From: a virus
Lineage: Duplodnaviria; Caudoviricetes
IMG/VR virus record: IMGVR_UViG_3300030098_005649
Length of the DNA stretch: 64,000 nt
Reading direction: 5' to 3' (one strand)
Both the position numbers and the translations under genes were made by a program. The notes under the pieces were generated by a model. That model made no database searches. It saw only the letters and a list, made by a program, of their open reading frames with translations, and was not told where the DNA came from. Numbering within the stretch: position 1 is the stretch's first letter; every line of letters starts with the position of its first letter. Shown here in pieces: positions 60,901-64,000 of this stretch.

Positions 60901-61956
60901 GACGAACCGAATGTTACAATAATAAATGAGGCGGTAACTACTCACGATTACAAGGTGGATATAAACATACCAAGAAGTGCAACATCAGTATCTACAATAG
61001 AATTAGATGATGCAAAACATCACGAGTCAGTTGATAATTTGAGTCAAAACTTTTTTGATGACTATGAAACTATTACGGTTGATGGTTGTAATTTTGATGA
61101 GTATTTGAAAAAATTTAGAAATGTGGATGTTGTAAAATTTGATGTTGAGGGACACGAGTATTCTATTTTTGAAAATTTATCAGATGAGAATATACAAAAA
61201 GTAAATCAATGGGTAATAGAATGGCACTTCAATTATGATGGTGGTAAGATTGATAAAATTTATTATAGACTAAAAGAACTTGGTTATGATGTAAAACTAA
61301 ATCAAACATCATCAACTGAAGATGGTTATCTAAATAATAGTTCTGGTATTTTATTTGCAAAAAAATATAAAGAGAAAAAAGAAAAAGTGATTGTTGATTT
61401 TATAGATGGATGTAAAGTAGAAATATTAGATGGTGACTCAAAAGATGATTACCTAATTCATTTTATTGACAAAGATAATAAAGTACCAACCGAAAAAATA
61501 AGAATGAAAACTAATCATTGGTACAAACCTGGCCGTCACTATTTTGTAAATTGGAGAGTTGTAGTTTATAGAAATAAAGAATTGATACATACTGAAGATT
61601 TAGATTTGAATGGAAAAAATGTAACTATACAATTTGATTCAAAGTCACTTGGAGATACTATCGCGTGGTTTCCGTATGTGGAAGAGTTTAGAAAAAAACA
61701 TAAATGTAATGTCTATGTTTCTACATTCAAAAACTTTCTGTTTCAGAACAATTATAAAAATATTAATTATTTAGAACCAGGACAATATGGTGATAATACT
61801 TATGCAAGTTATCATATTGGTTGGTACAAAAATGATAAAGGTGAAATAGACCTTGCAAGAAATAAACAAGATTTTAGAAAAATTCCTTTACAAAAATCAG
61901 CAACTGAAATATTAGGTTTAGATTTTGTAGAGATAAAACCAAAGGTAAAATTATGA
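57964..61956 (+). CDS. Multi-domain glycosyltransferase: GT2-like, GT4, FkbM methyltransferase and N-lobe of an Aah/TibC-like GT
   Basis: GLDADD; EGWNLPLIEALACGTP; IDVGGSCG...FEP...KFDVEGHE; DSKSLGDTIAWFPYVEEFRKKH. Confidence 0.8.
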   Translation: MKINLVTSFYNNSQYFDEISKSVEEAIKLYPNTEWVVTDDFDKSDIGITLKKYQITNYHTKVITQNYKQELYWNPHKFCDGDIIVGLDADDVLMPDALWYINHIYTRFPDVHNLHFSTKFYKDSFEWNNYHNTSMVDYKDYESFVEYHKDYELNKSIAGGPFRDKEPRVGYVWGGLRCYKNPGKDFDFLKYFPQEIKDYGKHEDFVKLSVLQTLGKSLYVNRPIYKLRRHDKQTTGNYVWENNENYDDNKFSVIRDNAPKPKYGFEKGLTLCDSITNSLVVLEEFDNINVVALKNFPDDFDTMESLRCTYPDLVFETYVKKDTDLVVFRVNNIDDYANVKFEIDDLKDDYSIIVFCEDENFTHETCDEGEEKLTHIKMVKSHFEKCLWTTYLYKYYWIMSVKESKKYNFNVRLETSFIGTTGYNNHARDHFTKVDERVPVKIGNFTIGKGWKGMSNDPHKSEPYMTNQISTMLDQQYLWNKDKQLIKEPMYQDRHLQDGRWDKNEDEVYIVLNEANHHLFYQDHPNNIPKIAFNVWETTRYEDSFFKKLLEFDQLWLPSEWAKQCVIEQGYPEDKVQIVTEGVDGQTFYPKKVEESDRFKFIIFGRWDYRKCTKELIQTFLNTFGMDEKVDLIVSVDNPFSIDGLESTEERLKHFGLEDDRIKVLHFPSREEYINYIQQGNVFLSCARSEGWNLPLIEALACGTPSICSNWGAQLQFAKDYAHLVDIIDERPAVEGEETFNYKAPGNYCEPDFDHLGKVMRDVYENYTEYKEKAIHDSVLLRNEFQWKRVANKSLDVMKNLINTFDSNMFKVELSKNEDNLDKIEYSFGTELNDVVVSIKDSSTNLTIYHCKYDKVDSNVTYWVVPNSYVDFEEIKMDFEIEVYSNGELYTSKKIGYGSDKQHRYFHNSPTDNNWYNFYEMNHMKIYEKELFVNDESVVIDVGGSCGVFTDYVLNKGATQVFCFEPVPDTYEDLLKTFEDEPNVTIINEAVTTHDYKVDINIPRSATSVSTIELDDAKHHESVDNLSQNFFDDYETITVDGCNFDEYLKKFRNVDVVKFDVEGHEYSIFENLSDENIQKVNQWVIEWHFNYDGGKIDKIYYRLKELGYDVKLNQTSSTEDGYLNNSSGILFAKKYKEKKEKVIVDFIDGCKVEILDGDSKDDYLIHFIDKDNKVPTEKIRMKTNHWYKPGRHYFVNWRVVVYRNKELIHTEDLDLNGKNVTIQFDSKSLGDTIAWFPYVEEFRKKHKCNVYVSTFKNFLFQNNYKNINYLEPGQYGDNTYASYHIGWYKNDKGEIDLARNKQDFRKIPLQKSATEILGLDFVEIKPKVKL

Positions 61957-62330
61957 AAGTAGAAATTCCAAATGGTGATTTAGTAGATAAAATTACTATA
62001 CTAAAAATAAAACAACTCAATGTTATGAATGAAGAAAAATTACAGAACATCAAATTAGAATATCAAACTCTAAAACCATTATTGGAAGAAATAGGTATGA
62101 GTGAAAATGATAGATTATTTACAGACTTGTTAGATGTAAATGAAAAGTTGTGGAGAATAGAAGACGACCTTAGAGTGTTGGAAAAAGATAAAGAATTTGG
62201 TAATACATTTGTAAATTTAGCAAGAGCAGTATATTTTACAAATGATGAAAGAGCCGAAATCAAAAAGAAGATAAATCTGAAAACAGGATCTAAACTTGTT
62301 GAAGAAAAGGATTATGTCGAGTACAAATAA
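61953..62330 (+). CDS. DUF6165-like protein
   Basis: GDLVDKITILKIK, VNEKLWRIEDDLR, ARAVYFTNDERAEIKKKIN, EEKDY. Confidence 0.75.
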   Translation: MKVEIPNGDLVDKITILKIKQLNVMNEEKLQNIKLEYQTLKPLLEEIGMSENDRLFTDLLDVNEKLWRIEDDLRVLEKDKEFGNTFVNLARAVYFTNDERAEIKKKINLKTGSKLVEEKDYVEYK

Positions 62331-64000
62331 AAAATATGTTACTTTAGCAATCCATTCTACTGCACAGGCAAAGTATTGGAATAGGGAAGATGGATGGCAA
62401 ACAGTTGTTGATTTTATGATTGACAAAGGTTATGAGGTTCATCAAGTAGATTGGGATAGTGGTGAGTATATGGGTAATCATCCACCTAAAGGAATTGTTG
62501 ATAAGACTCATCTACCCTTACCAGAAACTGCACAGATAATAAAAGATAGTGAGTGTTTCATTGGTATTAGTTCAGGACTTTCTTGGTTGGCTTGGTCATT
62601 GGATGTTCCTGTTGTTATGGTTAGTGGATTTACAGACCCAAATTTTGAAATGGATTGTGGTAGAGTATTCAATGAGAATGTATGTAATTCTTGTTTTAGG
62701 GATGAGGAGTTTGATGCTGGTGATTGGAATTGGTGTCCACGACATAAAGATACTGATAGAATGTTTGAGTGTTCTAAAGAGATTCATCCATATGAAGTGT
62801 TGAATGAAATTAGTAAAATATTATTTCCAAAAAGTAAAGGTGTAGATTCTTGTAAAGTTATATGTACTTGGATGGGTGGTGATAGACAAAGACGAGATGG
62901 ACTAAAAAATAGTGGATACAGATATGATTGGCCAGACCACGGTCAGTATTGGGAGAAAGATAAAATTTTTGATTCATTCAAAGAGATTATGACATTGGAA
63001 CATTCAATTGATGGTGGTAGAAAATATGATACGATAATTGTAAACTCATATTCAGAAAATACTGAGATGTACAAGTATCTAAATTATATAAATGGTGTTG
63101 AGACAAAGAATGGTAAATTTAGAGTATTGAATTTATTAGACAACGAAGGTAAGAATTACAAATCATTCAATGATGCATATAAATATTTTAGAGATGATTA
63201 TGATTGGTGGATGTTTACACCAGATGATTATGTTTATTTATCTAATGGTTGGTATCAAGCCACTATAGATAAATTTGAAGAAAAAGAAAATACCGCTGTA
63301 GTTTCTTTATTGGGTAATGGTCAAGAGTGGAAAGGGTATTGGGATTTACATACTACACATTCTCACGATGGTGCTATTTTATCCAATACATTTTACTTAG
63401 ATAAATTGTTAGAATGGTTTGGTGGAACTTTTCCATATGCATCTGGTGATGTACATACCGACCATATGGATATGTCGCATGTTGTCGTGGGTGAGATACC
63501 ATTCACCAATACATTTCAAAAGTATGGTTATAAGGTTGTGTCTTTTAGTGATACACACGATACTCAATACTTACCAGATGATAAGGTAGAAGAGAAACAA
63601 GATGAACTACCACCTGAAGTAAAATGGCCACTAACACATAATGGTAAAATATACTCCATACCATATTGGAATTGGAAAGAAGAAAAATATGATAAGACTA
63701 ATTTAGAACTTGAAGATAAATTCAACAATGATGTTTTTATAGTTACGGGTTATCCAAAAGGTGAAGAACGAATAAACTATATGATAGAAACTATAAAACA
63801 ACTAAAGAAAACTGGTAAAGAAATATATGTTGCATCACATTGTCCAATACCAATAGAGATTCAAGAAATGATTGATGGTTCTATATACGATAAAAGAAAT
63901 GAGTTGATTGACCAAGAAAGAGTTTTAGGTGGATACACAATATATGACAGACGATATGGTTCTTATTATGCAGTGTATTGGACTACTGGATATAACGATA
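62314..64000 (+). CDS. C-lobe of Aah/TibC-like GT fused to further GT-like domains; runs off the window edge (absent from ORF track)
   Basis: Own translation: MSSTNKKYVTLAIHSTAQAKYWN...FIGISSGLSWLAWSLDVPVVMVSGFT...CNSC...WCPRH...ECSKEI; no stop before base 64000. Confidence 0.8.
   Translation, partial: MSSTNKKYVTLAIHSTAQAKYWNREDGWQTVVDFMIDKGYEVHQVDWDSGEYMGNHPPKGIVDKTHLPLPETAQIIKDSECFIGISSGLSWLAWSLDVPVVMVSGFTDPNFEMDCGRVFNENVCNSCFRDEEFDAGDWNWCPRHKDTDRMFECSKEIHPYEVLNEISKILFPKSKGVDSCKVICTWMGGDRQRRDGLKNSGYRYDWPDHGQYWEKDKIFDSFKEIMTLEHSIDGGRKYDTIIVNSYSENTEMYKYLNYINGVETKNGKFRVLNLLDNEGKNYKSFNDAYKYFRDDYDWWMFTPDDYVYLSNGWYQATIDKFEEKENTAVVSLLGNGQEWKGYWDLHTTHSHDGAILSNTFYLDKLLEWFGGTFPYASGDVHTDHMDMSHVVVGEIPFTNTFQKYGYKVVSFSDTHDTQYLPDDKVEEKQDELPPEVKWPLTHNGKIYSIPYWNWKEEKYDKTNLELEDKFNNDVFIVTGYPKGEERINYMIETIKQLKKTGKEIYVASHCPIPIEIQEMIDGSIYDKRNELIDQERVLGGYTIYDRRYGSYYAVYWTTGYND

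Follow-up and report, generated by a model that had tools for sequence, protein, structure and literature searches.

The window analysed here is a 64,000-nucleotide (nt) stretch of the IMG/VR virus record IMGVR_UViG_3300030098_005649 (Duplodnaviria; Caudoviricetes), and near its end a TibC/BAHT-type GT9 glycosyltransferase module is encoded in two pieces. The beta-barrel and N-lobe close a large multi-domain protein (P0001), the C-lobe opens a second large open reading frame (ORF; P0003), and a gene of the family DUF6165 (P0002) lies between them. With moderate confidence, we explain this arrangement by a local change of gene order that put the DUF6165 gene into the linker between the two lobes, which would have given three coupled genes whose lobes rejoin as a working two-chain enzyme. 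Such an enzyme would most likely be a GT-B glycosyltransferase in two chains, like Alg13/Alg14, and would owe its origin to a 'gene in pieces' event in a phage. What is unusual here is that the gene which interrupts it is the enzyme family's own habitual partner.

The module is divided with no loss of sequence. The profile TIGR04414 (hepto_Aah_TibC, 374 positions) matches P0001 residues 1137-1329 over its positions 7-194 (E 3.6e-32) and P0003 residues 5-169 over positions 203-374 (E 7.8e-52). Each chain scores below the 200-bit equivalog cut-off (111.8 bits for the N-half chain, 176.5 bits for the C-half chain), which is exceeded only by summing the two polypeptides (289.9 bits, profile positions 7-374). 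TibC itself (PDB 4rap/4rb4) aligns through residues 22-201 to the N half and through residues 216-385 to the C half, with phmmer E-values of 4e-16 and 4e-39, respectively; the N half therefore holds the beta-barrel and an N-lobe with the equivalent of the catalytic base D110 (PMC4358343). Pfam assigns the split lobes to PF01075 (GT9) only, without homology to Alg13 (Glyco_tran_28_C) or Alg14. When the halves are aligned with 18 intact relatives, P0001 ends and P0003 begins in adjacent columns, without an indel, and at this point the intact relative L027 reads ILGLDFIEEKPKLPL followed by LSNKKVKRVCIAPHST, where the window has ILGLDFVEIKPKVKL followed by MSSTNKKYVTLAIHST. An earlier reading of this DNA, made from the sequence alone and hereafter the sequence-only reading, had proposed a clean cut at the inter-lobe linker, and both the profile ranges and the gap-free junction bear it out.

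The three genes overlap at their starts and stops, as that reading had also described. The N half is closed by the stop codon TGA at 61954-61956, the C-terminal letters of P0001 being ATEILGLDFVEIKPKVKL (also given as ILGLDFVEIKPKVKL), and the ATG of P0002 overlaps this stop as ATGA. The C-lobe ORF begins with the ATG at 62314 (letters MSSTNKKYVTLAIHSTAQAKYWN), 17 nt ahead of the DUF6165 stop; this ATG sits exactly at the start of the C-lobe and is preceded by a purine-rich AAGGA. A promoter and terminator scan of 57500-64000 detected no terminator-like sites, hence none between the genes, and promoter-like sites at no more than chance level. In the frame common to both halves, more than 20 stops occur in the 357 nt that separate the stop codon of the N half from the ATG of the C half, an interval over which the DUF6165 frame is the only open one.

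Table 1. Features of the split module and of the related gene in the same window.
Feature	Coordinates	Strand	Basis or remark
P0001, multi-domain protein, 1330 amino acids (aa)	57964..61956	+	Pfam, NCBIfam and PHROGs matches
P0001 domains: GT2; GT4 GT-B module; FkbM methyltransferase	aa 6-98; ~aa 459-802; aa 938-1109		
P0001 C-terminal part: TibC-type beta-barrel and N-lobe	aa 1137-1329		
N half of split TibC/BAHT-like GT9 module (beta-barrel and N-lobe)	61372..61956	+	TIGR04414 positions 7-194
DUF6165 gene (P0002), 125 aa	61953..62330	+	PF19662 match
C half of split GT9 module (C-lobe, beta-hairpin thumb region, iron-finger motif)	62314..62838	+	TIGR04414 positions 203-374
Second large protein, runs past the window end	62314..64000	+	1047 aa as P0005 in the near-identical contig L001
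P0004, intact divergent TibC-like GT9 gene, 417 aa	41468..42721	+	TIGR04414 positions 80-349, E 2.8e-47

The residues on which TibC depends are retained across the two chains. Structurally, TibC is described as having a catalytic base (D110), a nucleotide-sugar-binding lysine (K230) and a four-Cys iron finger needed for dodecamer assembly (PMC4358343). The equivalent of D110 is D1231 of P0001, lying in the invariant S-x3-G-D motif (G1230-D1231), while that of K230 is K20 of P0003, in AQAKYWN; both columns are at least 97% conserved among 69 relatives. In the same set, 58 columns are conserved at 90% or above, and the split halves keep 55 of these residues (26/27 in the N-lobe, 29/31 in the C half), the three changes being F>Y, I>L and I>V. 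Residues C124, C127, C141 and C153 of P0003 align with TibC C339, C342, C358 and C370 in conserved columns, and, as judged by this alignment, the four-Cys iron-finger motif is present in the C half.

Structure prediction suggests that the halves still recognize one another. An ESMFold2 complex of P0001:1130-1330 and P0003:1-175 gave ipSAE values of 0.82, 0.82 and 0.83 in three runs, against 0.00 for the best of three controls; in calibration, the mark applied was reached by 51 of 78 solved complexes and by 2 of 108 mismatched pairs. The predicted interface involves conserved cleft motifs, namely residues 1228-1234 near the G-D motif and residues 87-97 in GISSGLSWLAW. Association of the halves, as previously claimed, is thus upheld as a prediction: the modelled pieces would still fit like a GT-B enzyme, from which binding in the cell does not follow.

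The halves also appear to be maintained. Across the window and two IMG/VR contigs, the ratio of non-synonymous to synonymous polymorphism (pN/pS) was 0.06-0.17 in the N-lobe, 0.06-0.09 in the C-lobe and 0.07-0.12 in DUF6165. Of the changes that separate the lobes of the window from those of L001, 13 are synonymous and 4 non-synonymous, for which neutrality gives P = 4e-7. Since all three genomes carry the split, purifying selection acted after the split arose. Judged by these substitution patterns, the halves are not decaying and are under purifying selection (pN/pS 0.06-0.17); relaxed selection, which the sequence-only reading had named as evidence against itself, is not seen.

The explanation we favour runs as follows. 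In an abundant marine phage lineage, a local rearrangement would have put the DUF6165 gene into the inter-lobe linker of a TibC/BAHT-type GT9 module that belonged to a multi-domain glycan assembly-line protein. The outcome would be three translationally coupled, co-transcribed genes, encoding GT2-GT4-FkbM-beta-barrel-N-lobe, DUF6165, and C-lobe followed by 870 aa of unknown nature. The N-lobe chain, bearing the catalytic Asp, and the C-lobe chain, bearing the nucleotide-sugar Lys, the iron finger and the thumb, are inferred to re-associate non-covalently. They would thereby rebuild a GT-B active-site cleft between two polypeptides, as in Alg13/Alg14, and tie the ~1330-aa and 1047-aa proteins into one complex. 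DUF6165 probably acts with the split enzyme as it does with intact relatives.

Several considerations weigh against this explanation. Firstly, the activity of a two-chain enzyme is here read from sequence and a structural model rather than from biochemistry. Secondly, the predicted interface is small (~52 contacts), and because single-chain TibC is a solved structure, the complex score may reflect the model's memory of that fold, which would make it a likeness and not a proof. Thirdly, the arrangement is limited to near-identical genomes, with pS of ~0.03-0.1 and small substitution counts, and because of this confinement the time under selection since the split is short. Fourthly, P0004 and the many other glycosyltransferases of this genome could cover a lost activity. 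Lastly, two evolutionary routes, insertion and a swap of adjacent segments, both stand, and there is one marginal hint of discordance between the lobes.

The foremost alternative, which we nevertheless regard as unlikely, is that the halves are kept as docking or heterodimerization modules, or as acceptor- or donor-binding domains, in a rebuilt site that no longer transfers sugar. Selection would then target the formation of the complex or the catalytic domains alongside, with TibC-type activity supplied by the intact paralog or by other glycosyltransferases. The lineage-specific nature of the split and the presence of the intact TibC-like gene at 41468-42721 agree with such a role, as does the size of the interface, GT-B inter-lobe interfaces being small (~52 predicted contacts here). 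Docking alone, however, would not need the catalytic Asp, the sugar-binding Lys, the iron-finger Cys residues or the 55 of 58 conserved residues that are kept. The paralog, P0004, retains the G-D and AKYWN motifs and 30 of the 58 conserved residues. All four of its iron-finger cysteines are gone, its tree branch is very long (5.67), and it probably does not form rings as TibC does. Such divergence and the missing iron finger make redundancy with the split module unlikely. The 'intact paralog' of the sequence-only reading therefore holds as an intact TibC-like gene in the same genome, while proving to be a distant, cysteine-less family member and not a close copy.

A recent neutral or mildly harmful disruption, by which the TibC-like module was inactivated and is now decaying in ORFs kept for their flanking domains, seems to us distinctly improbable. 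Carriage by one lineage only (~99% identity) and the little time elapsed since the split would fit it. Set against this are the low pN/pS specifically inside the two lobes (P ~4e-7 versus neutrality) and the absence of any lost conserved residue, the only three changes among the 58 being those listed above. A proper ATG, with its upstream AAGGA, stands exactly where the C-lobe starts, and the arrangement persists in sequencing runs of at least six studies dated from 2014 to 2025, with the identical DUF6165 protein on 155 contigs.

We give hardly any credence to the notion that an intron, bypassing or read-through unites the halves into a single chain at the level of RNA or translation, DUF6165 being an intron-borne ORF; it is already largely refuted. 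What speaks for it is that both halves are in the same frame, 61954-62313 spanning 360 nt, a multiple of three, and that inverted repeats surround the insert. Three nested pairs flank the DUF6165 ORF (61878-90/62487-99, 61893-906/62402-15 and 61916-28/62283-95), and the predicted RNA fold closes them around it; its z-score of -2.47 comes from only 20 shuffles, one of which folded equally well. A natural variant, T61905C, would break one of the pairs. An apparent 2490-aa open frame with one TGA, which would have made a read-through giant protein, was ruled out on direct translation by the many stops (>20 in the common frame) between the halves. An intron or ribozyme was likewise rejected, no Rfam family matching 61500-62700 at E <= 1. 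Metatranscriptome contigs run colinearly through the two junctions (61856-62082 and 62249-62452), and neither RNA-library nor DNA contigs show a joint there, which tells against splicing, the possibility that the sequence-only reading had wished to see excluded. These RNA-library contigs indicate presence and not level, and DNA carry-over is possible. DUF6165 is, besides, an independent and highly conserved gene that turns up in hundreds of contexts elsewhere.

An assembly artefact or chimera, for which no favourable point was found and which we hold to be next to impossible, is refuted by colinear contigs from four studies, the same order recurring in two IMG/VR contigs and an ENA long-read contig. 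Single Logan contigs from those four studies cover 61300-62900 with 2-9 substitutions and no indels, and the stretch occurs, whole or in part, in 20 runs from 10 studies. The two IMG/VR contigs are ~99% identical to the window. The long-read contig (L151) was considered as an older split relative, on the basis of its ~89-91% aa identity. Its differences are clustered frameshift-type long-read assembly errors, and it is therefore the same phage.

Recurrence of the split together with its insert, on which the sequence-only reading had sought a survey, was not seen. IMG/VR searches with each lobe returned 133 loci, of which 119 were complete once the window's own lineage was removed, representing 82 distinct sequences (69 at <90% identity). 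In all 82 the N- and C-lobes share one ORF, 0-45 nt apart, and the two near-identical IMG/VR contigs are the only ones there to share the split. A DUF6165 gene between lobes was likewise absent from 80 further viral DUF6165 loci. An exhaustive HMMER search with the C-lobe alone matched 1148 representative protein clusters at E <= 0.001; among the best 150 of these no second split was confirmed, a few C-lobe-first cases having been inspected. The arrangement is thus limited to one lineage of ~99% identity, all other relatives examined being intact, and the uniqueness that would tell against the proposal is found in part, in that the split belongs to one phage lineage only.

Among the candidates rejected were L163, which has an in-frame stop inside the N-lobe and is not a split, and L165-L167, which are fragments at contig edges. 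The soil-metagenome contig L164 (1332-2018) carries a TibC-like C-lobe on its own, in a 228-aa ORF that immediately follows an HlyD-family gene, with no upstream N-lobe in any frame. One protein of an ENA contig (P0175, 423 aa) has a TibC-like C-lobe at residues 3-176 fused to an FkbM methyltransferase, with a 1039-aa ORF ahead of it across an 81-nt gap; it is a possible independent split without an inserted gene.

Intact analogues of the architecture exist. Fusions of GT4 to TibC-like domains occur in dozens of loci, a 931-aa GT2-GT4-GT9 protein is followed directly by DUF6165 (L158), and Microcystis phage Mel-JY01 encodes an intact 1226-aa FkbM-TibC-like fusion. Megablast of the region found no relatives among cultured phages. 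By tblastn, the C-lobe matched only Mel-JY01 and three megaphage records, and DUF6165 only Synechococcus phage S-SRM01.

With respect to origin, the common phage order is an N-C protein and then DUF6165, whereas in this lineage DUF6165 stands between N and C. Such a local permutation would have come about either by insertion of the partner gene in the linker or by an exchange of places between the neighbouring C-lobe and DUF6165 segments, which would also have joined the C-lobe to the gene that follows. Nothing was found on DUF6165 by way of mobile-element marks. A chimeric origin of the two lobes was also considered. In separate maximum-likelihood trees of the lobes the window lineage lies on long, deep branches (0.81 and 0.79). 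The approximately unbiased (AU) test did not reject a tree that groups the N-lobe with the clade to which the C-lobe is closest in identity (p = 0.47), and it marginally rejected one that groups the C-lobe with the N-lobe's sisters (p = 0.026). This marginal hint aside, there was no robust discordance. A hexamer, ATTATG, is found at both insert junctions (61950-61955 and 62311-62316), covering both start codons and with AAAGG ahead of each; it may be chance, or microhomology left by rearrangement.

The inserted gene belongs to DUF6165 by its match to PF19662 (E 1.2e-13, 51.3 bits, gathering cut-off 27), and all 22 invariant, mostly polar columns of a 40-sequence family alignment, with P0002 as the reference row, are present in it. 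Its AlphaFold model has four helices (pLDDT 94). Foldseek against the PDB returned no solved relative of this fold at E <= 0.001, VIA-align wide found generic helical hairpins only (Z <= 6.7), and a profile search against PDB sequences gave a coiled-coil match only; neither the PDB fold searches nor the profile search yielded a nuclease match. Our literature search found no paper naming DUF6165.

Gene context associates the family with GT9 enzymes. A TibC-like glycosyltransferase lies within 4 kb in 35 of 80 viral DUF6165 loci, and in 16 of the 80 an intact TibC-like C-lobe ends directly at the DUF6165 start. Among 80 bacterial loci from many phyla (L247-L326), the immediate downstream ORF is a PF01075 GT9 in 27 of the 54 that were scorable, the order of DUF6165 then GT9 being the reverse of that usual in phages. 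The closest relatives of P0002 (65% identity) follow, at a distance of one or two genes, a protein built from three TibC-like modules in tandem. These are single phage proteins of 931-939 aa with the order N-C-N-C-N-C (L152:1-2465, L154:859-3678 and L155:1-2465); after them come a radical-SAM gene (missing from L154), an epimerase gene and the 65% relative. Some DUF6165 genes sit among other glycan genes without a TibC-like gene. In another phage (L003:3038-5264), for example, DUF6165 lies between a GDP-mannose 4,6-dehydratase-like gene and a second gene of the NAD-dependent epimerase/dehydratase family, with start/stop overlaps.

On this evidence of gene context, DUF6165 is a habitual neighbour or partner of intact GT9 enzymes and not a split-specific device. 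Since its normal neighbours are GT9 or TibC-like genes in intact form, whatever partnership exists is older than the split. The earlier suggestion that DUF6165 is a partner of the enzyme consequently survives as a link to the GT9/TibC-like family, supported by the viral and bacterial counts above, and fails as regards a bridge specific to the split. A bolder version, which we consider unlikely, would have DUF6165 as an obligate small subunit of GT9/TibC-type protein glycosyltransferases in bacteria and phages. Here it would clamp the separate lobes into a three-part enzyme that couples two assembly-line proteins of ~1000-1300 aa non-covalently into a TibC-like ring megacomplex, and this would assemble and methylate a glycan carried by a surface protein of the phage or of its host.

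Three known systems, together with the DUF6165-GT9 gene pairs, provide points of comparison. With TibC/Aah (BAHT, CAZy GT9-related, PDB 4RAP, 4RB4; PMC4358343) the split module shares the order of beta-barrel, N-lobe and C-lobe, the latter with a beta-hairpin thumb and four-Cys iron finger, as well as the conserved D110 and K230 equivalents. It differs in being phage-encoded and in two polypeptides with another gene between them, its halves being fused to GT2, GT4 and FkbM on one side and to 870 aa of unknown nature on the other. TibC/Aah use an ADP-heptose donor and a serine acceptor in an autotransporter passenger domain, whereas no autotransporter substrate is evident here, no autotransporter gene being seen in the window.

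Alg13/Alg14 and EpsE/EpsF are GT-B enzymes divided between the lobes, whose active site arises where the chains meet (PMC8993221; also PMC9527342). They resemble the present case in having separate N-lobe and C-lobe chains divided at the inter-lobe linker, association being a prediction here. They are, however, GT1/GT28-like, and a GT9/BAHT module is therefore alike in working and not of one family with them. Their split is ancient and widespread and leaves adjacent genes, while that described here is recent, confined to one lineage, has a third gene between the halves and embeds both halves in giant multi-domain proteins.

An active enzyme can still result when a phage gene is divided by an insert, as in Aeh1 nrdA, T4 gene 39/60 and phage 25 gene 43 (PMC2988022). 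Those cases (Aeh1 nrdA/mobE, T4 39/60/mobA and phage 25 43A/43B) are likewise one-lineage splits by an inserted ORF in genes that are intact in relatives, and their pieces reassemble into an active enzyme (PMC2988022). Their insert is a homing endonuclease, a selfish mobile gene, in contrast to the four-helix DUF6165, which is without nuclease features and is the habitual neighbour of the same enzyme family. In the DUF6165-GT9 gene pairs, DUF6165 is also encoded in contact with a GT9-type glycosyltransferase, after the intact gene in phages or before it in bacteria; only here is it inside, between the lobes.

Split GT-B enzymes and split phage genes being already known, the present case offers no new principle; as a lineage-specific arrangement, it is a variation on known split enzymes. 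It may rather be regarded as a natural experiment, in which a TibC-type glycosyltransferase has been cut exactly at its inter-lobe hinge with both pieces kept under selection, suggesting that the family tolerates, and may exploit, assembly in trans. The uncharacterized DUF6165 gains a concrete, testable link to GT9 enzymes, and this partnership is the more general lead. The 1148 protein clusters noted above also point to a large and barely studied set of multi-domain TibC-like enzymes in marine phages.

Beyond the C-lobe, P0005 continues for ~870 aa without a Pfam match. Within this otherwise unannotated tail, residues ~455-560 (L001:5720-6040, past the window end) form a short conserved segment that recurs N-terminal to intact TibC-like domains in many phage proteins (e.g. 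L020:1372-1566), and by its distribution it looks like an uncharacterized accessory domain of TibC-like enzymes.

The window has a GC content of ~33%, with almost all long ORFs on the plus strand, and, of the records compared, the closest is a 109-kb IMG/VR viral contig with which it has 73% of sampled words in common. Its glycan gene set is very large, comprising GT4s, a sugar C-methyltransferase, a DegT aminotransferase, GT2s and RimK-like ligases. Positions 1-25328 alone hold ~25 kb of co-directional sugar-nucleotide and glycan genes, among them two GT4s, a sugar C-methyltransferase, a DegT/EryC1 aminotransferase and a GT2, a repertoire that is unusually large for a phage.

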